Origin: an uncultured Methanoregulaceae archaeon
Lineage (GTDB): Archaea; Halobacteriota; Methanomicrobia; Methanomicrobiales; Methanospirillaceae
NCBI GenBank assembly: GCA_963841015.1
Contig: CAWJAX010000005.1
Coordinates: forward strand, 533,855 to 597,854
Reading direction: 5' to 3'
DNA length: 64,000 bases
How positions within the stretch are numbered: position 1 is the stretch's first letter; the number at the start of each line of letters is the position of its first letter. A program made the translations under genes and the position numbers. Below, piece after piece: positions 9,707-36,583 of the stretch. The notes under the pieces were generated by a model that saw only the letters and a program-made list of their open reading frames with translations, made no database searches and was not told where the DNA came from.

Positions 9707-10867
9707 TTATTGCGAAACTACCTTGTGCATCAATGCCATAACACCGGGTTTTGCTGCCTTGCGGGACCTTTTTGGGAAAGCATCCATCTCCATCATGGGG
9801 GATTCAAACATCTCCTTATTGAGCCGGTCATTGATCTCATCGAAGATCCGGGTGTAAGCAGTGCAATGAGGATCTACCCCGCGGATTTCACCGGGTGTTG
9901 GCGCCATGGCATTATACGGGCATCCTCCCCGGCAATATTTTATATGCCGGCACTCCCCGCAGGCTGTATCCACATAGTTCTTAAACCGGCTCATCAGTTT
10001 CCCTGCATCAGATTGCATGAGGTCATCCATCCCAGGATGATCCCGTACGTTACCCATAACGTATTCCGGCATTCCCACGAACCGATAACACGGGTAGATG
10101 CTCCCGTCAGGTCCGACAGCAAACGTGTTTCCCATGCAATCCACGTATGTGCAGACGGTCCCCCGGCGGGTGAACACGCACCGGCAGAGGTCGTTGATGT
10201 TCATCACATCGATATCCTGTATATGTTCAAGGGATTTATCCAGAAGGTAGACCAGGAGGTCCCCGTATTCCTCAGGGGGAAGAGCCCACTCCTTCGGATT
10301 CTCAGACCGAAGCGAGGGTAGTGCCGGATGTAATTTAAGCGTAAACCCGTTCTTTAAAAAGAAATCAAAAATCTCCTGACGGTGTTTTACTGATTTATTG
10401 GTAAATGTGCAGATAAACCGGACATTCAGACCCTGAGCCCTTGCGATCTCATAGCCCCGCATGGTCTTTTCAAAATATCCTTTTCCCCGTTGGGAGTCAG
10501 TAATGTCTTCGGGACCGTCAATACTTGAACCGATGGGAACATGGTACTCTGCCAGGATCTGGGCTATCTCCGGGGTCATCCGCCAGAGATTTGTCTGCAT
10601 GGCAAATTCCGGGTGAAGATCCTTCAATCCTTCGGCAAGCAGCGGCAGAGCCTGCCGGTAAAACTCCGGACCGGCAAGCAGCGGCTCACCCCCGTGGAAC
10701 GTGAAGGTAACCCGGTCCTTTCGGAAATTTTTAAGCCATGCCACAACTTCTTTGATAGTCTCGATACTCATGACCGGGGATCCTTCCTCAGAACTCCAGC
10801 AATAACTGCACTTGGAAGGACAGCCCAATGTCGGGATGAGCATGATGTGAAAAGGATTTTTCATCAC
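9707..10867 (-). CDS. Radical SAM/SPASM enzyme, likely TIGR04083 (Mhun_1560-like) putative peptide-modifying family
   Basis: CPSKCSYC, FHGGEPLL, SPASM C..C...G.IYPC...CGECRHIKYCRGGCP...C. Confidence 0.8.
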   Translation of the reverse strand: MMKNPFHIMLIPTLGCPSKCSYCWSSEEGSPVMSIETIKEVVAWLKNFRKDRVTFTFHGGEPLLAGPEFYRQALPLLAEGLKDLHPEFAMQTNLWRMTPEIAQILAEYHVPIGSSIDGPEDITDSQRGKGYFEKTMRGYEIARAQGLNVRFICTFTNKSVKHRQEIFDFFLKNGFTLKLHPALPSLRSENPKEWALPPEEYGDLLVYLLDKSLEHIQDIDVMNINDLCRCVFTRRGTVCTYVDCMGNTFAVGPDGSIYPCYRFVGMPEYVMGNVRDHPGMDDLMQSDAGKLMSRFKNYVDTACGECRHIKYCRGGCPYNAMAPTPGEIRGVDPHCTAYTRIFDEINDRLNKEMFESPMMEMDAFPKRSRKAAKPGVMALMHKVVSQ

Positions 10868-12150: not shown

Positions 12151-13843
12151 TTACCTTGACGGTATGATCAGTGAGCGCTCTCCAGCGGGCATGAACTCGC
12201 GGATTGCACCCTTCGCGAACTCGCGGCGTGGTTCGGAGAAGTCGAACTTGAGCGACGGGTCGGCAAACGTGATCTTCATCAGTGGGGATAGGGTCCATGC
12301 ATCTCCGCGTGCCGTAGTGGGCAGGCTGCGGCGATTGCTGCGTATTCTCCCTGGTGGCCGACGTTCATTGCATAGTTCGGGTAGTTCGGTCCACGGAGCT
12401 CGCCGAGTACATCCCTCGTCGGGACGGATCGACATGGAGTTTGCGGAACCGCACTGGTCCTGCAGGTCGTAGCCGAAGAAGCCGAGACGTGACCAGCCTT
12501 CCTTGTGCATGAGCATGGACAAGTACCAGCCGTTCAGGCCGGCGTTGGAGTTTGCAGTTGCCAGTGAACAGGAGATACCTGATGCTGCTGCAAGGACGGA
12601 GGCACGCTGGGATCCACCGAAGTGGCTCTCGAGGGCGGTCGGGTATGTCTCGTACTGCTCCATACCGTAGAGGTTGACCTCGGTTGCGATGTCGCTGACG
12701 ACTTCCTGGGTCGACTTTGCCTTGCCGATGCCACCGTGTTTCTTCTTGATGTAGTCAATACCGTAGTAGGTGTAGTCATCGAGGATGTTGTCGGTGTATG
12801 CAGCGGTTGCATACTGGGTGAAACCGACACCACCGGACATGTAGGATCCGAGCCAGATCTGGTCGAACAGCATGGTACCTGCACCGACGACTTCAAGAGA
12901 TTGCCTTGACGGGGTCGTTGGGGTACTTGCGGTCTGCCTGGATCATGTCGCAGAAGTGTCCGAACTTGATGCCACCTGGCTCGTTCGGGCCACGGGCACG
13001 GCGGGCGGGCAGGATATCTGCCATCTGGATAACACCGGCGTGCTTTGCGGCGAATGCGAGGTCAGCGACTGCTGCCTCACCGGCGCACATCTTGTACGCT
13101 CCGATGAAGGACATACCGATCTGCATTGCAGACCAGCGGGAGGTGGTTCCACCATCGCATGTCCTGCTGACGGTTGTGGGGATGTGCACTGCCTGCCACA
13201 TCGACTTGCCGACCGCTGCCTTGAGTGCGGCTGCCTGCTTTGCCGGGAAGAGTTTGTCGACGTTGAGCACGAACTGGGGCTCGAGGTCGTCTGCCATCTC
13301 GTCGTCACCCGTGAAGACCTTGACGTAACAGTCGTCCACGAGTGACGGGTGAGTCTCGACCATGTGTTCCTGAACAACGGCTGCACCGGGCATGGCGTGG
13401 TTCAGCACGTGGAGGTACTCGTTGATGGTTTCTGGGGTGACTTCCTTACCGAGACGCTTCTGGAGCGTGCCGTGGGCGAGGTCGAGGCCGACAATGATCG
13501 TCCTGCGGATATCATCCCACATCTGCTGCATCGCGGCGTTGTTGACAAAGTGCAGGTCATCGCCTTCGACGAAGACGCCCGTTGCGCTGACTTCGTAGGT
13601 TGTCAGCTGGCGCTGGCCGAGCGGGATACCGCCGCAGTGGCAGCGCTTCGGGTCGTACATGGAGATGCCGCGGTCCATCTCGGCCTTCTTACCGGCCTTC
13701 ATGAACTCGACTTTTCTCGGGGACTGCTCAAGACCCTTGCGCTCAAAGACCGTGGACATTGCCTGGGGGTCTTCGGCAAACTTTGTCTTCATTGCCTTCA
13801 GGAAGAGCTTCTGGGTCCTTTCGATTTTTGCTGCTTTTGCCAT
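12151..13843 (-). CDS. mcrA: Methyl-coenzyme M reductase alpha (frameshifts near 12900, 12410, 12325)
   Basis: [49 protein letters not shown]. Confidence 0.98.
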
Positions 13844-15751: not shown

Positions 15752-17064
15752 TTATACGCCCTTGGCAATTGCCTGGATCGGCTTCTTGAATGCATCGAGC
15801 TGCCCGAAGGTGTCCTGGTAAATCTTTGAGGTTGCTTCGGGGCCGAACATCTGGGTGCCTGCATCAAGACAGCATGCTGCTACGATACAGGGCATACCGA
15901 CACCGGCTGCGTGACGGGTAACGACGTGGTTACCGTTGAAACCGCCGGGGCCGCCGCCACCGTAGATCGAGTGGCTGAAGAACGAGAAACCGACTGCTAC
16001 ACCCATGGTACGACCGAAGTCGGAGCCGGGGAGGCCGGTCTCGTGCTCGAGCAGGTCGTTGAAGTAGAGCAGGGTTGCTGAGACTGCCTGGGCAAACCGC
16101 CCGGCACCACAGTTGACCATGGTTGCTGCAAGGGTTCCTGCCGATGCAGTAGGCATTCCACAGCATCGGGTCCTTGGTGTCGTAGAAGATATAACCGCTC
16201 TTGCCCTTCTTGCCTGCCTTGATGACTTTGTCCTCAATGGCACGCTCGACAAGGCTCTGCACGACAGTACCGATGGTACCGGTCTTGCCGTTTGCCTTGA
16301 CAAGGTCGTAGACCAGGTTGTTTGCATTCAGTCCCTGGTATGCATAGAGCAGGAGCTGGGCACGCTCGAACGGGCCGATTGCCATACCCATCTCGAACTC
16401 CCCTGCCTGTTCAAAGGTCGAACAGAGTGCTGCACCCTGCATGGCATTCCGGTGGGTCATCATTGCCGCATGGTTTGCGGGAATGTTACGAAGTGCGTAG
16501 CCGAGACCTTCGTTGTTCTGCGGGATGTTCAGGATTGAGACTACGTTGCCGCCGTCCATGTGCATGGTCTGCGGGTAGGTACCCCAGACAGCTCGCCTTG
16601 ATGTAGGAGCCGTCGAACATACCGACCTTGTACTGGTCAACCAGTGCATAGGTGGTGGCTGCTGCAACGGCCGTTGATGCTGCATCATAGGTTGCTGCTG
16701 CATCCAGTCGTGCGCTCGGGACCTCGACTAAGATCATCTTGCCGCCGCCGACCTTGGTGATCTTGGTGTTGTCGCCGTCGGTGACCTGGACCATGTCCTT
16801 GATCTTTGCGGAGAGTGCGTCGCAGTCCTTGACACAGCTGCAGTTCATGCTGCGGCCGAGAACCTGGTTCGTTTTGCCGCCGATCTTTCCGGTCTTTAAG
16901 GCGTCTTCGATACCAGCGAAGTTGACTGCCACGGTCCTCTTGGTGAGGTCGATGACATTGAGTGCACCCTTGTTGACCAGCGGGCTGATCTTGTCAAGAG
17001 TTACATTGCTCTTTAAGAGCTTACCCTCATCGTCGTAGAGGTCGATTGTGTCTTTATATTTCAT
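15752..17064 (-). CDS. mcrB: MCR beta subunit (frameshifts near 16600 and 16150)
   Basis: [40 protein letters not shown]. Confidence 0.97.
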
Positions 17065-28614: not shown

Positions 28615-28918
28615 AATTTTCTCTTTTTTTAATTTATTGCGATCACATCGATCGTTATTTATATTTTTATTGCCGATTCTTTTGTTAACGAAATTTTCGG
28701 CGATAACATGATCACCCTGACACACAAGGACGTGAATCCCCGATTCCGACCTCTTTTCAGCCCGATCTTTCGCCTGGGGGTTGGCGGATTCAATGGTACC
28801 TCAGCGATCATCGGACGATGCATTGCCCGAAGCACCAGTACAGCGGATATGATGAACCGATTGTGTACCTGGGATGGGGTAATACAGGAAATCAAAGGAA
28901 TTGAGATGGCTGGACACT

Positions 28919-29815
28919 ATGACGAACATCCCTGAACCGTATGTCATACACTACCCGCGGATTGTGGCAGTAGCTGATGAAGCAGGCAGTCATGTGGAGC
29001 TCATTGAGTTCTTTGACTGTGTTGGCGGGGCAATGTGGTCAAAGCACCACTATGCCCAAAGCCCGGTGGTAAAAAATGTCCGCTGTGTTGGCCAGACCAT
29101 GCGGTACCTCTTAACCACGGGTACCGTGGACCTTGCTCTTGAAGGATCCAGGTTTCCGGCCGGTATCTCCTCGTGCATTGTCGAAAAATCTGAGATCGCT
29201 GTCACCTACATCGGAATGGGTGGGGGCGGGGTAGGTGCAGCAGCATGCCGTTCTGATGCAGCTGGTGTCCTGCGGAGCAGGTGCGATGAATCCGGGGGTG
29301 GGAAAGTTGCCGGTTCCACGATATGGCTGCCCCGCATGCAGCGGGTTCTCATTGGTGTCGATGATACTGATACCCCTGACGAGGGAGCCACGTGGACGCT
29401 TGTCCATAATATTGCAAAAGCGGTTGAGGATGAGCATTCGGTATACCTCTCGCACACGATAGTCCAGCTCTTCCCGGTGCCGTACCGTACCAAGAACTGT
29501 GTGAGTCTTGTGGCAGAGTTCGCGACAACGGATACCAAGGGACTGACAGAAAGGTTCCGGCAACTCCTCGAACGGTACACTCTCTCCCAAAAAACGGGGA
29601 TGGCAGTCTATACCGGGTTTACACTCTCAGAAAAACTGCTTGAATACGGGCGAAATGTCAAACGGGGAGAGATTAAACCGGGAGTGCTCGGAGGCCTGGA
29701 TGACAAAAACCTGCAGATAATACTGGATGGCAGGGGCATAATCGGGGCGGTTGCCGCCATCCCTTTTTACACCCGGTACGAGGAGGCGCTGGAATTATGC
29801 AGTGGACGGACCTGA
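28919..29815 (+). CDS. mmp11: Methanogenesis marker protein 11 (TiaS-like/DUF1743 C-terminal domain)
   Basis: VELIEFFDC, Y.GMGGGGVGA, IGVDDTD...GATW, QLFPVPYRTKNC. Confidence 0.85.
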   Translation: MTNIPEPYVIHYPRIVAVADEAGSHVELIEFFDCVGGAMWSKHHYAQSPVVKNVRCVGQTMRYLLTTGTVDLALEGSRFPAGISSCIVEKSEIAVTYIGMGGGGVGAAACRSDAAGVLRSRCDESGGGKVAGSTIWLPRMQRVLIGVDDTDTPDEGATWTLVHNIAKAVEDEHSVYLSHTIVQLFPVPYRTKNCVSLVAEFATTDTKGLTERFRQLLERYTLSQKTGMAVYTGFTLSEKLLEYGRNVKRGEIKPGVLGGLDDKNLQIILDGRGIIGAVAAIPFYTRYEEALELCSGRT

Positions 29816-30766
29816 AAGCCCGGCTTCTGGCGGTTGGTCAGGCACACCTGACCGGTGAACCGGCAGAAAACTATATCGCCCGTTCAGCTGCAGGTACCCG
29901 GTGCCGGTGGCAGCGGTGCAGTTTTTTTTGCCATGGGAAGTCACCGGGTCAAGCTTGCGCTCAGCCCGGTAAGCAGTATCGAGATTGCACACCGTGGCAA
30001 CGGAACTGCCGATCTGTTCTTTGAAGGACAGAAAATCTCCGGACACCTGCTGGAACCCGGGTTCCATTGCCCTGATCAGGCTTTTATCACCGTGACCGGC
30101 AGCTGCATTTTTTCCTGCAGCTATTGTTCCGTCCCCCGGATCGGGGGAAAACGCAAGACCATCAAAGAGATCACAGCGATGGTGGAATCGGTACGTGACC
30201 ATATCCATGCAATCTCCATAACAAGCGGGGTCCTCACGAGCATTGAAGAAGAAGAGGCCTATGTTCTTGAAGTGGTAAAACACCTCGCTTCGTTTAACCT
30301 GCCTGTTGGTGTCTCCATCTACCCGACCACAACGACACCCGACCGGTTAAAGGAGCTGGGCGTGGCTGAGGTGAAATTCAATCTCGAAGCGGCAACCCCG
30401 GAACTGTTTTCTCAGATGTGCCCGGGTCTGGATTACGGGGTACTCTGGCAGGTACTGGATCGCTCGGTGAAGCTGTTCGGGAAAAACCGTGTCTTTTCCA
30501 ATGTCATCATAGGCCTGGGGGAGACTGATGCGGAGCTGGAAACCTGTATCCAGAAGCTGACAGCGCTCGGGGTGATTCCGGTTCTGCGCCCACTCAATCC
30601 GGTAGCCGGGCTTGCAGGCTCACCACGGCCATCTGCACAACGGCTGATGAAAATCTTTGCCATACATGCACGGGCTCTTGACCAGGCTGGTCTTGATCCA
30701 AAACTTGCAGTTACGATGTGCACGAATTGTGCAGGTTGTGATCTCGTGCCGGGGAGGGACCAATGA
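29797..30766 (+). CDS. Radical SAM protein, biotin-synthase-related (frameshift near 29896)
   Basis: CIFSCSYC; NVIIGLGETD; additional C-terminal CTNCAGC; N-terminus MQWTDLKARLL in another frame. Confidence 0.85.
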
Positions 30767-32034
30767 AAGGGGTTGACGTAATCACCCGGGCAATCCTTGC
30801 CTGCACCGACCGGCAGTATACCGTGCCGGGTTTTCCCATCACTGAGCTTGGTGAGCGGACAGGAGCGGAACTGGTGATCAACGAGAAGACTGCGCTGGAA
30901 TATGCACTCGGGGATTCCCTCTCTGGCAGGAGGGCCGCGGTTATCATCAAAAATGTCGGGGTGAACGCGTGTGCCGATCCCCTGCTCCAGGCAACAGCGC
31001 AGGGGCTCATAGGGGGGGTGATCCTTGTAGCCGGGGATGACCCGGAAGCAAAAGGTTCACAGACCTCCCAGGACTCACGCTACTTCGGGGAGCTTGCGGA
31101 ACTCCCGGTGATAGAACCGGATGAAACCACCTGTTATGCCGGTGTGGAGGCGGCGCTTGAAGCCTCCGAGGAGTTCTCCCGGGTAGCCATGCTCCGCCTG
31201 ACACCACAGATCCTGGAACAGGAGGTAACAGGTAATCCTGTTCCCCGGAATGACCGGCGAGGGAGGCTCTCCGACCGGACCTGGACTATGAACGGCAGGG
31301 TCACTGCAGCAGAGGAGCTGTACCGCACGATGTTTGCCTGGTCAGACCGGTCAGCCCTGAACCAGTGGAAGGGAGAACCCGCCGGTGTTGGTGCAGCAGA
31401 GGGGAATACCCGGATAGTGACCGTGAATCCTCTGCCGTTGCAGGCTGCCGGGATGCACAATGTGCATGAACAGGGCCGGACCTTTGTCCGTGACCACCGT
31501 GGTATCCAGCCACCGCTTCCCCAGAAACGCCCCCAGGCGATGGAGGACCGCGGATACTACCGCACATTCTGCACCTCATGCCCGTTTAAACCCTTCATGA
31601 ATATCGTAAAGGAACGGAACATGAAGATGATCTGCGATGCCGGGTGTTCCGTGCTGGGAATGAATCCGCCGTATGATCTGGGTGTGGCAAGTTATGGTAT
31701 GGGTGCGAGCATCGCGGTAGCCGCACGGAGTACGCAGGTTGCCCTTATCGGTGATTATGCCCTCCTGCACTCCGGTCTGAACGCACTCATCGATGTCTAT
31801 GAGAAGCGGCTCCCGCTGCTCTGCATAGTAATGAATAACAAATGCACCGCAATGACCGGCAAACAGCCGGCCTATAATCCTGTGCCCTATATCCGCTGGG
31901 CAGACCCGGTTATCTGCAGTGCCGATGACGAACCGATGCTGAAACAGGAGCTTGTGGTCACGGACAGGCCGCGAACGCTGGTGATTGAAGGGACCTGTCC
32001 GGGAGGAAGCAGCCATGAAACCGTGGAATATTGA
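30763..32034 (+). CDS. ThDP-dependent enzyme, truncated IorA-like
   Basis: TVPGFP, INEKTALEYA, AGDDP...SQ..QDSR, FCTSCP, GDYALLHSG...NN; no C-terminal ferredoxin domain. Confidence 0.85.
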   Translation: MKGVDVITRAILACTDRQYTVPGFPITELGERTGAELVINEKTALEYALGDSLSGRRAAVIIKNVGVNACADPLLQATAQGLIGGVILVAGDDPEAKGSQTSQDSRYFGELAELPVIEPDETTCYAGVEAALEASEEFSRVAMLRLTPQILEQEVTGNPVPRNDRRGRLSDRTWTMNGRVTAAEELYRTMFAWSDRSALNQWKGEPAGVGAAEGNTRIVTVNPLPLQAAGMHNVHEQGRTFVRDHRGIQPPLPQKRPQAMEDRGYYRTFCTSCPFKPFMNIVKERNMKMICDAGCSVLGMNPPYDLGVASYGMGASIAVAARSTQVALIGDYALLHSGLNALIDVYEKRLPLLCIVMNNKCTAMTGKQPAYNPVPYIRWADPVICSADDEPMLKQELVVTDRPRTLVIEGTCPGGSSHETVEY

Positions 32035-33143
32035 GATATGTGATGTAACGCTCAGAGACGGAGAACAGACACCGGGAGTATCATTTTCCTGTGAGGAAAA
32101 GGTGAGGATTGCCCGGATGCTGGATACCATCGGGATTGAGGTGATCGAGGCCGGGTTTCCTGCAGTATCCCCCCACGAAAAGGAGTGCGTAAAGGCCGTT
32201 GCGAACCTCGGGCTCGACTGCCCGTATCTGCGGGTTTGCACGCGCCCGGGAAGCAGATGTTGCAACAGCGATAGACTGCAATGTGGACATGGTAAGCATC
32301 TTTATCCCGACATCCGAGCTGCATGTCCGGCTCAAATTCAAAAAAACGCGGGAGCAGGTGCTTGACGATGCACTCGGGATTATTGATTATGCCACGGATC
32401 ACGGTGTTCAGGTGCGGTTTGCAGCCGAAGATGCGTCCCGGACGGATCTTCCCTTCTTAAAAGAGGTGTACCGTCGTGCGTCAGAGCACGGTGCAGTGCT
32501 GCTGAGCTTTGCCGACACCGTTGGCTGCCTGATCCCGACCGAAATGCAGCGGGTCATGACCGAACTGGTTGCATCGGTGGACAAACCGCTCTGTGCTCAC
32601 TGCCATAACGATATGGGCTGTGCGGTCGCAAATACGATTACCGCTGCAGAAGCCGGGGCTTTCCAGCTGCATACAACGGTAAACGGGATCGGGGAGCGGG
32701 CTGGCAATGCATCCCTGGAAGAAGTGCTTGTAGCCCTGCGGATGAAAGGGGGTATTGATCGGTACGATCTCTCACACCTGACGGAACTCTCCCACATGGT
32801 CGAAAAATTCTCCGGCATCACGCTCCCGAGGAACAAGCCCGTCACCGGCGAACTCGCGTTCTCGCACGAAAGTGGTATCCACATCGCGGCAATTCTTGAA
32901 GACCCGTCCTCGTACGAATACTTCCCGCCCGATATGGTCGGGAGCGAACGCAGGTTCATTCTCGGGAAACATACAGGTAAGAAAGCGCTTGAACATGTAG
33001 TGGCATCGATTGGCTGCGAACTTACCGAAAAACAGGTCTGCCGGGTTCTTGACCTTGTCAAGGACAAATCAGAGCATAAATGCAACATCACCCCGGATGT
33101 CTTAAAAAAACTGATCCGGAAAGCAAAAGAGGAGAATGCCTGA
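32015..33143 (+). CDS. aksA: Homocitrate synthase family (frameshift near 32218)
   Basis: DVTLRDGEQTPG, HCHNDMG, GIGERAGNA, HESGIH; no LeuA regulatory domain. Confidence 0.85.
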
Positions 33144-34357
33144 TGGGGACATTATCAGAAAGGATCCTTCACGGGACTGCGGGAGAGTATGTTGACCGGG
33201 CCATCGACCGGGCGTATGTCCATGACGGCACCGGGGTACTTACTCTTGAAGCCTGGAAGAGTATGGGAGAGCAGAGGATACAGGATGCGTCACATATTCA
33301 CGTCCTTTTCGATCATATCGTGCCGGCAAACAACAGCACAACTGCGACTCTCCAGCACGAGCTGCGTGAGTTCGCCCGCAGTTCGTTCCTGCATTTTTCT
33401 GATATCGGGAGTGGGATCTGTCACCAGATCATGAGCGAGGGGATAGTGCTCCCGGGTGAAGTCGTGGTCGGCGCTGATTCCCACAGCTGCACGCTCGGGG
33501 CCTTCGGTGCATTTGCCACGGGTGTCGGTGCAACGGATATGGCAGCGATCTGGATGACCGGGGAGACATGGTTCCGGGTTCCGGAATCAACAGGGATGCA
33601 CCTTTCCGGAACCTTTACTGGTGCCGCCGAGGCAAAAGACCTTGCACTTACCTATGTCAGCAAACTCGGTATGGACGGTGCCAGCTACCAGGCTCTGGAA
33701 TTTATTGGTGAAGGCACAGCTGCCCTGCCCATGGACGACCGGCTCACGCTCTGCAACCTTGCTGTTGAGACCGGTGCCAAGGCCGGAATGTTCTATGCAG
33801 ATGCTATAACCGTGCAGTATCTTGCAGCGGCAGGTCACACGGTAAAACCCCAGACGCCGGAGCCTTGCAGGTATATCCGGGAGCTGGATTTCGATCTTTC
33901 CGATATTGTCCCGGTCATTGCTGTGCCTCCAAGGGTGGACACCGTAAAACCCGTGCATGATCTCGCCGGGCTGCCGCTCGATCAGGTTTTTGTGGGTACC
34001 TGCACAAACGGCCGCTACACGGATCTTGCACGGTTCGCACGGGTTGTGAAAGGGAAAAATGTTGCAATCCGCACTATCATTGTTCCGGCTTCCCGTGCCG
34101 TGCTGCAGGAAGCACTCCGGACCGGGGTACTTGCTGATCTTGTGGCGGCCGGATGCACTATCGGAACCCCGGGCTGCGGTCCCTGCCTTGGAGCCCATAT
34201 GGGTGTACTGGGCGAAGGGGAGGTCTGCCTGTCAACAGCAAACCGCAACTTCAAAAACCGGATGGGTGTTGGCGGGGAGATTTTCCTGTCCTCCGTTGCC
34301 ACGGCCGCAGCCAGTGCACTTGAAGGAGAAATAACCGAGCCGGAGGCGGGCCCATGA
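33143..34357 (+). CDS. aksD: Homoaconitase large subunit
   Basis: HDGT, GICHQ, GADSH, GTCTNGR, CGPCLG, NRNFKNRMG. Confidence 0.85.
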   Translation: MGTLSERILHGTAGEYVDRAIDRAYVHDGTGVLTLEAWKSMGEQRIQDASHIHVLFDHIVPANNSTTATLQHELREFARSSFLHFSDIGSGICHQIMSEGIVLPGEVVVGADSHSCTLGAFGAFATGVGATDMAAIWMTGETWFRVPESTGMHLSGTFTGAAEAKDLALTYVSKLGMDGASYQALEFIGEGTAALPMDDRLTLCNLAVETGAKAGMFYADAITVQYLAAAGHTVKPQTPEPCRYIRELDFDLSDIVPVIAVPPRVDTVKPVHDLAGLPLDQVFVGTCTNGRYTDLARFARVVKGKNVAIRTIIVPASRAVLQEALRTGVLADLVAAGCTIGTPGCGPCLGAHMGVLGEGEVCLSTANRNFKNRMGVGGEIFLSSVATAAASALEGEITEPEAGP

Positions 34358-34824
34358 TGGGAAAAGGGCGGGCTGTCTGCGTCGGTGCAGATATTGACAC
34401 GGATCTTGTAATCGCCGGGCGCTACCTGCGGACAAAGGATCATAGTCTCTGGGTTGCACACGTGTTCGAAGATCTCGATCCAACGCTCGCCAGCCGCCTG
34501 AACGGTGCCGTGATCGTGGCAGGAAAAAATTTTGGCTGCGGTTCCTCCCGGGAACAGGCAGCGATTGCCATCCATGAGGCCGGCGTGGTTGCCGTGGTGG
34601 CACCATCCTTTGCCCGGATATTTTTCCGGAATGCAATCAATGTCGGGCTCCCGCTTATTGAATGTAATCTCTTCTGCACAGAGGGAAGTCTCGTGACGTT
34701 CGACCTTGCAGAAGGATGGGTTGAGGCAGAGGGTAAGAAGTATACCACCTGCCCGCTCTCTCCACGGATGCAGGAGATCCTTGCAGCGGGCGGCCTCGTC
34801 AACTACTGGAGGTCCGGCAGATGA
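34354..34824 (+). CDS. aksE: Homoaconitase small subunit
   Basis: IDTD...YLRT loop typical of homoaconitase; GKNFGCGSSREQA. Confidence 0.85.
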   Translation: MMGKGRAVCVGADIDTDLVIAGRYLRTKDHSLWVAHVFEDLDPTLASRLNGAVIVAGKNFGCGSSREQAAIAIHEAGVVAVVAPSFARIFFRNAINVGLPLIECNLFCTEGSLVTFDLAEGWVEAEGKKYTTCPLSPRMQEILAAGGLVNYWRSGR

Positions 34825-35621
34825 TCTTTCCGGAACAGTGCAAGCAGGTCGGGTATGCTGCAACAAAACCCTGCGGTGACAAGGTCTATTTCCTGAGCCG
34901 CTACCTGGTGCGGGACACGGGTGACGGGTATGAGCTGCTCGAAATCACGCTTGATTCTGCAGGGAAAGGTCTGATGCGTACAATTGTGGCGTCCAACGTG
35001 GTCGCAACTGCAAAGGAAACGTACCGTTACCCCGAAAAAGTGCAGATCCATGACCGCACGCGACTTATCAGGCTTGCACGGGATACGGGCTTTCGCTGCA
35101 CGATCTTTACCGGGCTTGACGAACATATGACGTTCGTGCTTGACCCTGATATCTCCGGGCTGCTTGAGATCCATGTTTATGATGTAGCGCCTCCCCGCCC
35201 GAGTCTCTCTTCCTGTATCCGGGAGCTGGAGTCTGACGGGCTCTTTGGGGATCTTTCGGTCACGTTCTGCCACCATACCCGCGATATCACGCAGGTCCAG
35301 GCGGATGTCTACCCCTGTCGTGCCGCAGGGTATACCCGTACGCTCGATGCCGACCCGATGCAGGGGGGGGAACGGGTAGCCGGGTGCCAGACAGGTTCAC
35401 AGTTCTACACCGAATGCTACGGGAAGGACTTTGCGCTTGAGAATATCTGCCCGCTGGAATCCGTGCAGGAGGAACCGTTCATAGCCCGTTGTTGTCGCTC
35501 CGAACGTGCAGGTACAGGGATCTCTAAAGGGAAGTTTGGAGCCGTAGTCCACTGGGGTGCAAATCCGGCACAGATCGCCCGTGCGGTGAATGATCTGGCA
35601 GTGGAGTGGAGGAAGCAATGA
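34821..35621 (+). CDS. Cys-rich protein of unknown function
   Basis: 266 aa, ATGA overlaps with both neighbours; YPC, GC, ICP and RCCR motifs. Confidence 0.85.
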   Translation: MIFPEQCKQVGYAATKPCGDKVYFLSRYLVRDTGDGYELLEITLDSAGKGLMRTIVASNVVATAKETYRYPEKVQIHDRTRLIRLARDTGFRCTIFTGLDEHMTFVLDPDISGLLEIHVYDVAPPRPSLSSCIRELESDGLFGDLSVTFCHHTRDITQVQADVYPCRAAGYTRTLDADPMQGGERVAGCQTGSQFYTECYGKDFALENICPLESVQEEPFIARCCRSERAGTGISKGKFGAVVHWGANPAQIARAVNDLAVEWRKQ

Positions 35622-36583
35622 CCCGGATCGCGATTGTTGAAGGTGATGGTATCGGCCATGAGGTGATCCCGGTTGCACAACAGGCTCTTGAACTGCTCCA
35701 TCCCGAATACGAATTCTTCGCAGTTGATGTCGGGTACCACCGCTGGGAACAGACCGGATGCCCGTGTGCAGATCACGATATTGCGGAACTGAAGACCGCA
35801 GATGCAATCCTCTTTGGTGCGATCACGACACCCCCGATGAAGGATTACCAGAGCGTAGTGCTGCGGCTGAGAAAAGCGCTCGATCTCTACGCAAACCTGC
35901 GGCCGGTCAAAGGGAACGGGTTCGATATCATGATCGTGCGGGAAAATACCGAAGGACTCTATTCCGGTATCGAACAGGTCAGCAATGACCGGGCAACAAC
36001 CCTCCGGGTGGTGTCCCGGCGGGGTACTGAGCGGATCGTGCGTGCTGCAATCCGGCTCGCACTACGGCGGAGCGGCAGGCTGACTATCGGACATAAGGCA
36101 AATGTGCTCAAATCCGATGTATTGTTCCGTGACATCTGCCTTGCCGAAGCGAAAGCAGCGGGTGTTTCCTGCAATGACAAATACATCGACGCTCTCGCGC
36201 TGGACATCCTCCAGCATCCCGCGTCGTATGATGTCGTTGTCACGACGAACATTTTCGGGGACATCCTTTCAGACGTGGCTTCGTATCTTGTCGGGGGACT
36301 GGGGCTGGTGCCCAGTGCCAATATCGGTGACCACCATGCCCTTTTTGAACCTGTGCATGGGAGTGCCCCGGATATTGCCGGCAAAAATATCGCCAACCCG
36401 ATCGCTGCCCTGCGGAGTGCAGGCATGCTCCTTACCTATTGTAATGATCCATCAGGATCAGGGAGGATCGAAGAAGCAATACAGGAAGTACTTGCAGAAG
36501 GCATCCGGACCCGGGATCTTGGTGGTTCAGCCGGGACCCGTGAGTTCGGGAATGCGGTGCTCCGCAGGCTCCAAAAAATATAA
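35618..36583 (+). CDS. aksF: Homoisocitrate/isopropylmalate-family dehydrogenase
   Basis: GDGIGHEV, RENTEGLY, HKANVLK, NIFGDILSD, EPVHGSAPDIAG. Confidence 0.85.
   Translation: MTRIAIVEGDGIGHEVIPVAQQALELLHPEYEFFAVDVGYHRWEQTGCPCADHDIAELKTADAILFGAITTPPMKDYQSVVLRLRKALDLYANLRPVKGNGFDIMIVRENTEGLYSGIEQVSNDRATTLRVVSRRGTERIVRAAIRLALRRSGRLTIGHKANVLKSDVLFRDICLAEAKAAGVSCNDKYIDALALDILQHPASYDVVVTTNIFGDILSDVASYLVGGLGLVPSANIGDHHALFEPVHGSAPDIAGKNIANPIAALRSAGMLLTYCNDPSGSGRIEEAIQEVLAEGIRTRDLGGSAGTREFGNAVLRRLQKI

Follow-up and report, generated by a model that had tools for sequence, protein, structure and literature searches.

A radical SAM family with conserved C-terminal cysteines, encoded in a coenzyme B gene cluster of Methanomicrobiales and possibly acting in a sulfur-related step

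Our analysis of a 64,000-nucleotide window from an uncultured Methanoregulaceae archaeon (assembly GCA_963841015.1, contig CAWJAX010000005.1, forward-strand positions 533,855 to 597,854; the window is this whole stretch, and positions below are counted from its first letter) concerns a gene for a radical S-adenosylmethionine (SAM) enzyme at 29797..30766 on the + strand, which lies among genes for coenzyme B synthesis. The reading we favour, at a probability of roughly 40%, is that the product is a two-cluster radical SAM enzyme which acts with the protein DUF7714 in a sulfur-related step, and that this step has been wired into coenzyme B synthesis in Methanomicrobiales. It is not the universal enzyme that installs the coenzyme B thiol, because whole lineages of methanogens are without the family and some archaea without McrA, a subunit of methyl-coenzyme M reductase (MCR), carry it. 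A sulfur role in coenzyme B synthesis draws its main support from two lineages in which the cluster includes a sulfur-handling gene: in Methanobacterium this is a SufS-like gene, in Methanomicrobiales the radical SAM gene together with DUF7714.

The intact protein contains the canonical radical SAM motif CxxxCxxC in the form CIFSCSYC (30104..30127, +; C103, C107 and C110) and a second motif near its end, CTNCAGC (30719..30739, +; CxxCxxC with C308, C311 and C314), which is part of a TMCxxCxxCD[IL]xP tail found throughout the family. Both motifs had been pointed out in a first-pass annotation made from the sequence without database searches, and both proved to be conserved across 53 relatives together with one further cysteine, Cys208, whose codon (30419..30421, +) lies in the stretch MCPGLDY. 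Of 1.84 billion cluster representatives searched, 728 were related at E <= 1e-3, and 79 of these passed E <= 1e-30. In the alignment of the 53 full-length relatives (A1; 25-57% identity, numbered after the nearest homologue, P0001), C107, C311 and C314 never vary, and at least 90% of the sequences have C103, C110, C208 and C308, which is far above chance. The N-terminus bears a conserved KAxLL...AGPGAG signature. No conserved cysteine was found in the first 90 consensus positions of this alignment, so there is no N-terminal cysteine motif of the LipA style. The extra conserved cysteines could bind an auxiliary cluster, with Cys208 as its candidate fourth ligand; the candidate ligands would then have been relocated to Cys208 and the C-terminal tail.

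PF04055 (Radical_SAM; 55.7 and 57.4 bits, cut-off 29.5) was the sole Pfam model whose threshold was passed, and the protein belongs to this superfamily. Among the more specific models, the top NCBIfam match was LipS2 (NF053743; 68.3 bits, E 7.2e-19), which missed its cut-off of 270, as did variant_rSAM NF045502 (67.9 bits, cut-off 125), the MSMEG_0568 family TIGR04043 (67.2 bits, cut-off 303.7), bioB TIGR00433 (31.1 bits, cut-off 225) and lipA TIGR00510 (23.1 bits, cut-off 310.25). The earlier label 'biotin-synthase-related', which some sources also give to the family, is therefore apt as a description of resemblance and not of membership, given the bioB score. The protein is best described, from its sequence and its predicted structure, as representing a separate and functionally uncharacterised archaeal family within the LipA/BioB clade, since the curated cut-offs were missed and the cysteines that bind the auxiliary cluster of BioB are not conserved.

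From the 53-row alignment AlphaFold predicts, with pLDDT 96.4 and pTM 0.93, a barrel of the LipA/BioB/HydE type with an N-terminal domain of about 90 residues ahead of it; this domain alone (G064 protein, single sequence) folded at a pLDDT of 44.6 and was not used. In Foldseek the type II biotin synthases 8vcw (E 1.5e-9) and 8vdw ranked at the top, ahead of HydE, E. coli BioB, NifB and LipA, with all matches covering about 220 residues of the barrel, and the best hits of a profile search against the PDB were BioB 8vdw (9.8e-14) and LipA 5exi (3.3e-11). In VIA-align the top match was LipA 4u0p_B (Z 19.1, rmsd 3.4, 245 residues aligned), which covers model residues 7-312, and the alignment with human LIAS spans residues 9-320; BioB 8vcw (Z 18.1) covers only residues 92-322, and HydE and PylB likewise begin at about residue 92. 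The ESM Atlas returned only the protein's own radical SAM clusters.

Near-equal Z scores were also obtained for MqnE (18.9), PylB (18.0), HydG (17.5) and ThiH (17.2), none of which inserts sulfur. This would suit an enzyme that performs radical chemistry without sulfur insertion, such as rearranging a C-C bond or decarboxylating or condensing a 2-oxoacid, and whose second cluster binds the substrate or relays electrons. A second cluster that binds substrate is known from TYW1 and MoaA. The lack of conserved BioB auxiliary ligands and the supply of 2-oxoacids by the operon described below are in line with such chemistry. However, the best sequence relatives of the family are the sulfur insertases BioB, LipA and LipS2, sulfur-metabolism genes recur as neighbours in at least four lineages, and the partner DUF7714 has five invariant cysteines. 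We consider a role without sulfur insertion unlikely.

The link to coenzyme B comes from the position of the gene, which is the second in a packed run on the + strand. It is preceded by Mmp11 (28901..29815; TIGR03280, 344 bits, cut-off 255.8; TiaS TCKD/FLD-like), whose stop is overlapped by its start by 19 nucleotides, and its own stop overlaps the ATG of the next gene (ATGA), which encodes an IOR-alpha-like thiamine pyrophosphate (TPP) enzyme of 423 amino acids (30763..32034; TPP_enzyme_C domain, IOR_alpha 156 bits, below cut-off). The run continues with genes for an AksA-like homocitrate synthase (31985..33143, split between frame 2 at 32015-32239 and frame 3 at 32133-33134), the HacA-like large subunit (33080..34357) and HacB-like small subunit (34354..34824) of homoaconitase, DUF7714 (34821..35621; PF24830, 303 bits) and an AksF-like homoisocitrate dehydrogenase (35606..36583). 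Elsewhere in the host genome, contig C4 has a further leuC/D/B-like set and contig C3 two additional aksA paralogues; therefore, the set in the window is plausibly the aks set. The order Mmp11, radical SAM gene, IOR-like gene, aksA, hacA, hacB, aksF is kept in all seven window-type loci, which represent six Methanomicrobiales families and a named Methanocorpusculum, and DUF7714 lies between hacB and aksF in five of them and beside Mmp11 in the other two. In a tree of 97 sequences the window-type clade comprises P0001, P0122, P0123 and the Methanocorpusculum copy (SH-aLRT 96). This conserved cluster supports a link to coenzyme B. The IOR-alpha-like protein is short when compared with its 595-position model, and no gene for a partner beta subunit adjoins it.

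We know of no genes assigned to the steps that lead from 2-oxosuberate to coenzyme B, that is, decarboxylation, thiol formation, threonine coupling and phosphorylation. The pathway is likewise called 'still unknown' in a genetic study from 2025 (PMC12068725). Mmp11 and the TPP enzyme are candidates for these late steps. Among 30 named McrA-bearing genomes, which had been picked by a neutral DNA scan for McrA motifs and then searched with profiles, 19 have Mmp11 above its cut-off, including all six class I methanogens. In two Methanobacterium genomes (L205, L211) Mmp11 lies near hacA-hacB-aksF, with a gene like the SufS-family cysteine desulfurases and a lumazine synthase gene in between. Mmp11 adjoins an acetolactate-synthase-like TPP enzyme and aks genes in Methanomethylicota (L208) and in the 'Nitrososphaerota' genome G427 (L209), and is directly beside an IOR-like TPP gene in Methanosarcina, Methanothrix and Methanolobus (L206, L207, L212). 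The repeated grouping of aks genes with a TPP enzyme and Mmp11 suits late steps of coenzyme B synthesis: the TPP enzyme would decarboxylate 2-oxosuberate, and the TiaS-kinase-like Mmp11 would carry out an ATP-dependent step.

Two observations on Mmp11 stand apart from this. Between ftr and Mmp11 (28666-28860) the window retains a 65-amino-acid remnant (54% identity) of a second Mmp11-like paralogue, which is a full gene of 338 amino acids in G064 and also occurs in several other Methanomicrobiales loci. Moreover, G580, a Thermoplasmatota genome in a single 3.58-Mb contig without a McrA match, encodes Mmp11 at 328 bits, above the cut-off, along with the radical SAM family and no DUF7714; a methanogenesis marker was unexpected in a genome lacking MCR.

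DUF7714 co-occurs closely with the radical SAM family well beyond the window, and the two are distributed in nearly the same way. It was found in 16 of the 30 named genomes, each of which also has the radical SAM family, and in no class I methanogen. Among 151 Thermoplasmatota genomes DUF7714 is present in 28, of which 27 have the radical SAM family and 12 are without McrA. Within the Halobacteriota it occurs in families f1-f7, f10, f14, f24, f28 and f30, which are among the families whose listed radical SAM matches fall in the strong score tier described below. These counts overstate independence, as the genomes are related to one another. The pairing is not complete: no DUF7714 was detected in the 64 genomes of f8, the 54 genomes of f15 or the McrA-bearing families f12, f16, f20 and f29, and parts of f15 and one f12 genome have a strong radical SAM match without it. 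The two genes adjoin in G473 and lie 6-8 kb apart in several genomes of f14, f10 and the Methanomassiliicoccales. The invariant cysteines of DUF7714 are C166, C189, C210, C224 and C225. Its sequence gave a weak full-length match to the ComA/XcbA (phosphosulfolactate synthase) family (59 bits, cut-off 150), and a PDB profile search gave no relative at E values up to 1.

Taken together, we envisage that Cys208 and the C-terminal CxxCxxC would hold an auxiliary [4Fe-4S] cluster near the site of LipA's own. SAM would be cleaved to a 5'-deoxyadenosyl radical, which would take a hydrogen from a small acid substrate, and the auxiliary cluster could serve either as the source of sulfur or as a site of substrate binding. 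The radical SAM enzyme and the cysteine-rich DUF7714 may act as a module. In Methanomicrobiales, the organism of the window among them, this module sits translationally coupled within the coenzyme B cluster, where it would most likely perform a late, sulfur-related step on the C7 chain derived from 2-oxosuberate.

Several findings weigh against this reading, in addition to the missing BioB auxiliary cysteines. One is the distribution of the family, which is neither universal among users of coenzyme B nor confined to them. In the phylum of the window, 279 of 401 genomes have a match to the family profile at E <= 1e-10, and the scores fall into two tiers. The strong tier includes all 67 genomes of the window's order, 52 of 52 in family f7, and f10, f14, f24, f28, f30 and others, and the McrA-less families f13, f21, f22 and f25 have almost no matches. 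However, the McrA-bearing families f12, f16, f20 and f29, which have no DUF7714, have weak-tier matches only (about 1e-30 to 1e-46), with the exception of one genome. Strong full-length members are present in 18 of the 30 named McrA-bearing genomes. The carriers are Methanosarcina (G407), Methanimicrococcus, Methanolapillus, Methanolobus, Methanosalsum, two Methanotrichaceae, Methanocorpusculum and two further Halobacteriota, as well as four Methanomassiliicoccales, one Bathyarchaeia metagenome-assembled genome (MAG), one genome of the anaerobic methanotrophic archaea ANME-1 and two of ANME-2. In the other 12 only weak matches to the core (E 1e-7 to 1e-22) or none were found. These include all six Methanococcales and Methanobacteriales (Methanocaldococcus, Methanothermococcus, two Methanobacterium, a Methanobacteriaceae genome and Methanobrevibacter), the remainder being Methanomethylicota, Methanofastidiosia, two Thermoproteota-like MAGs and two horse-gut MAGs. 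Applied to the refuting condition of the first-pass annotation, orthologues missing from most coenzyme B producers, these counts do not support a dedicated and general role, with no strong member in any class I methanogen examined.

The reverse case is found in the Thermoplasmatota. In the sample of 151 genomes, 36 carry the family at E <= 1e-50. McrA is present in 17, of which 16 have the family; among the 134 McrA-negative genomes, however, 20 carry it as well, 11 of them together with DUF7714. Therefore, the module has a function that does not require MCR. The source names of distant cluster members also include non-methanogenic Thermoplasmata.

Two further objections concern the chemistry of the thiol step. 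Labelling work by R. H. White reportedly traced the thiol to the aldehyde 7-oxoheptanoate, a route that would need no C-H activation, and known aldehyde sulfurtransferases do such chemistry without radical steps. Furthermore, in the 2025 study the COG1900 enzymes MMP16 and L-ASST are proposed for the coenzyme B thiol in Methanosarcina acetivorans, and their double deletion was unobtainable even with coenzyme M and methionine (PMC12068725). Methanosarcina carries the radical SAM family, which consequently does not obviously bypass the need for COG1900 enzymes described in that study.

These results bear on the role first proposed for the protein, a dedicated C7-thiol insertase for 7-mercaptoheptanoate that would use a LipA/BioB-type radical attack on a cluster sulfide, with substrates such as heptanoyl or 7-oxoheptanoyl. 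Its place within the aks/Mmp11 operon across Methanomicrobiales agrees with this proposal, as do the top NCBIfam match to LipS2, the LipA-like architecture, the extra conserved cysteines and the sulfur genes next to copies in other lineages. Nevertheless, the class I, Methanomethylicota and Methanofastidiosia genomes examined yielded no strong member of the family, 20 Thermoplasmatota without McrA carry it, and both the aldehyde route and the COG1900 enzymes proposed in PMC12068725 offer other ways to the thiol. A dedicated and general C7-thiol role is not supported by this evidence, and we judge it quite unlikely. A narrower proposal would make the radical SAM enzyme and DUF7714 an unrecognised, lineage-specific sulfur route on an aks-derived acid, which supplies or supports the 7-mercaptoheptanoate thiol in Methanomicrobiales, Methanosarcinales, Methanotrichales, ANME-2 and Methanomassiliicoccales; other enzymes would do this in class I methanogens, where a SufS-like gene has the corresponding place in the aks-Mmp11 cluster of Methanobacterium, and non-methanogenic Thermoplasmatota would make another thiol or sulfur metabolite. 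This we regard as rather unlikely.

Outside the window-type clade the genomic setting is different, and this too counts against a function in coenzyme B synthesis. We examined 13 such loci, from Methanosarcina, Methanimicrococcus, Methanolobus, Methanotrichaceae, ANME-2c, three Methanomassiliicoccales, a Methanomicrobiales MAG (G416) with a copy of a second type, and four other lineages. In 12 of them the region within about 10 kb of the radical SAM gene has no aks genes, no Mmp11 and no IOR-like gene; the sole exception is G418, where aksA and DUF7714 are 7-9 kb away. The proposed link to coenzyme B stands for the conserved aks cluster throughout Methanomicrobiales and not for these other loci. 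The neighbours found there are often genes of sulfur metabolism: larE is the adjacent gene in G416 and G005 and lies 6 kb off in G009, G418 has the arrangement cysK-cysE-cysS-radical SAM gene, G420 has cysS, cysE and an ncsA-like thiolase gene nearby, and in Methanolobus a sulfite-reductase-like gene is close. Clustering of the neighbourhoods of these 13 loci and of 16 Thermoplasmatota loci gave no universal neighbour. In G416 the aks operon is without a radical SAM gene and the second-type copy lies elsewhere, which suggests that the window-type and second-type copies are interchangeable.

It is also possible, if doubtful, that the function shared by the radical SAM enzyme and DUF7714 is unconnected with coenzyme B (for example, the trafficking of sulfur or the synthesis of another sulfur metabolite or cofactor) and that their residence in the aks cluster is an arrangement of one lineage. 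Such a role would be common to class II methanogens, Methanomassiliicoccales and some non-methanogenic Thermoplasmatota. The 11 McrA-negative Thermoplasmatota with both genes argue for it, and so do the loci without aks linkage, the larE, cysKES and ncsA-like neighbours and the position of the G416 copy outside the aks operon. On the other hand, the operon position and the overlapping start and stop codons are kept in six families and in Methanocorpusculum, and G418, G451 and G445 also have aks-like genes close to the radical SAM gene. A sulfur-related step wired into coenzyme B synthesis in Methanomicrobiales, performed together with DUF7714, remains the reading we prefer.

The gene in the window, in which the first-pass annotation had rightly noted a frameshift, is interrupted by a single extra base at 29895 (+; within ggtAccc). 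The ATG at 29797 in frame 1 opens only 75 amino acids, and both the sequence and the tables of open reading frames (ORFs) show a 303-amino-acid ORF in frame 2 at 29855-30766. The span of 29797-30766 is 970 nucleotides, or 323 codons plus one base, and if it is read through (frame 1 at 29797-29894, frame 2 from 29897) a protein of 322 amino acids results. Public homologues are intact at 321-322 amino acids. The nearest of them, P0001, is 96% identical to the window protein; it runs on as ...SAAGPGAGGSGAVFFAMG... at the frame switch of the window, and the point of the switch is matched by its stretch ...ARSAAGPGAGGSGAVFFAMG.... The letter at 29895 has no counterpart in any covering contig of close environmental relatives (X1, n=1; X4, n=2; X15, an RNA library, n=1; X2 has no cover there) and is the sole indel listed against them over 2001 bases (29300-31300). 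The sequencing runs behind these contigs share at most 0.57 of sampled words, which makes them relatives and not the source organism.

We compared frame breaks over 20 kb of the window with G064, a complete genome of the same genus. Three other genes are each split over two frames relative to it, namely aksA (31985-33143), mcrA (12151-13843, -) and a third gene (16419-17061, -). We read these breaks as assembly errors, because a methanogen cannot lose mcrA, and the frameshift at 29895 is most likely an assembly error as well. A true pseudogene, inactivated by the one-base insertion, appears improbable. The inserted base lies outside any homopolymer run, and the 330-amino-acid paralogue described below exists in the same genome, both of which would fit inactivation. 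However, none of the contigs of near-identical environmental relatives that cover the site has the base, other genes in the same 20 kb are frame-broken too, and the rest of the frame is open, with 96% identity to P0001. Single-base indel errors seem to be scattered over this assembly, and broken ORFs in it should not be taken for pseudogenes. A leuC-like gene on contig C4 (G000:C4:75113-76295), which gave two overlapping tblastn pieces, may be a further frame break.

The paralogue just mentioned is an intact gene for a protein of 330 amino acids on contig C2 (G000:C2:222680-223648), with 42% identity and the same cysteine pattern; at 100.7 bits it missed the NF045502 cut-off of 125. In the tree it groups with sequences of family f15 and not with those of Methanomicrobiales (SH-aLRT 99), and one of the f15-group sequences is identical to the copy found in a Methanophagaceae (ANME-1) genome, G424. 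From its placement, this paralogue would appear to have been acquired by lateral transfer. Another radical SAM-like ORF, with CPSKCSYC near its N-terminus, lies in the window just downstream of the mcr genes (9998-10864, -).

The results yield a short, testable list of genes for a pathway that has long been open: Mmp11 (with its paralogue in some genomes), the radical SAM enzyme, the IOR-like TPP enzyme and DUF7714, all beside aksA, hacAB and aksF. Moreover, the phyletic data indicate that the late steps of coenzyme B synthesis probably differ among methanogens. A radical SAM gene treated in a paper on nitrilases is said to be that of the Nit1C nitrilase cluster. In a literature search with most subscription journals outside its reach, this was the only paper found for DUF7714/PF24830, COG2516 and 'biotin synthase-related', of which it uses the last two (PMC1199592); the same search gave one unrelated proteomics paper for 7-mercaptoheptanoate and oxosuberate, nothing that describes this radical SAM family in methanogens and nothing on methanogenesis marker protein 11.

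The resemblance of the family in sequence and fold to BioB, LipA and LipS2 raises the question of an alternative biotin or lipoyl synthase, and no bioB above the cut-off was found in the host genome (G000, 94% complete), G414 and G418, which would leave room for a substitute biotin synthase. Methanosarcina, however, holds a canonical bioB (408 bits) besides this family. Among five genomes tested, bioD (TIGR00347) was not found in G000, G407, G414 and G418 and was found in Methanocaldococcus (G401). For the lipoyl acceptor GcvH, there was no match in G407, and those in G000 (23.7 bits) and G414 (21.2 bits) were partial and lay inside ORFs of about 590 amino acids (589 in G000); no match to an LplA-like protein (TIGR00545) was found in G000, G407 and G414. 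A true GcvH (>150 bits) together with an LplA-like protein was seen only in the Thermoplasmatota G418 and G451 among the genomes tested. A lipoyl synthase was rejected for the Halobacteriota carriers, as neither a true GcvH nor an LplA-like protein was found in G000, G407 and G414. On the bioD, bioB, GcvH/LplA and cut-off evidence, either kind of synthase is highly implausible.

Several known systems may be set beside this family. The COG1900 enzymes (L-ASST MA1821-22, MMP16/ComF) are candidates for the same chemical outcome, a thiol on an aks-derived or aldehyde-derived carbon, with an unrelated fold and mechanism that is not of the radical SAM type; they are a rival or complementary system and not relatives. 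Models TIGR04043 and NF045502 were matched to their C-terminal end (348 of 354 and 349 of 357 positions), which shows that the C-terminal region is shared, whereas the proteins they describe occur in another gene context and in other taxa. Type II BioB, of which the B. obeum and V. parvula enzymes contain an auxiliary 4Fe-5S cluster, is the best match in Foldseek and in the PDB profile search. It is described as an enzyme of anaerobes whose auxiliary 4Fe cluster is proposed to supply the sulfur, and the auxiliary ligands are given as C97, C128, C188 and R260 in E. coli BioB and as C52, C138 and C198 in boBioB (PMC10813225). In a profile alignment to 8vcw and 8vdw, the latter three positions, as listed there, fall on columns without cysteine (G/V, S) in our family, which adds an N-terminal domain and a C-terminal cysteine tail to what is present in BioB.

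LipA, the top structural match, and LipS1/LipS2 likewise combine a radical SAM barrel with an N-terminal extension. LipS2 and LipA put sulfur on the terminal carbon of an acyl chain. A second Fe-S cluster would be expected both in LipA/LipS2 and in the family described here. In contrast to LipA and LipS2, however, the candidate ligands of this family are Cys208 and the C-terminal CxxCxxC, with none in the N-terminal 90 residues; if these four cysteines bind a cluster, the enzyme would place the ligands of an auxiliary cluster in a way that is new to the LipA/BioB clade.

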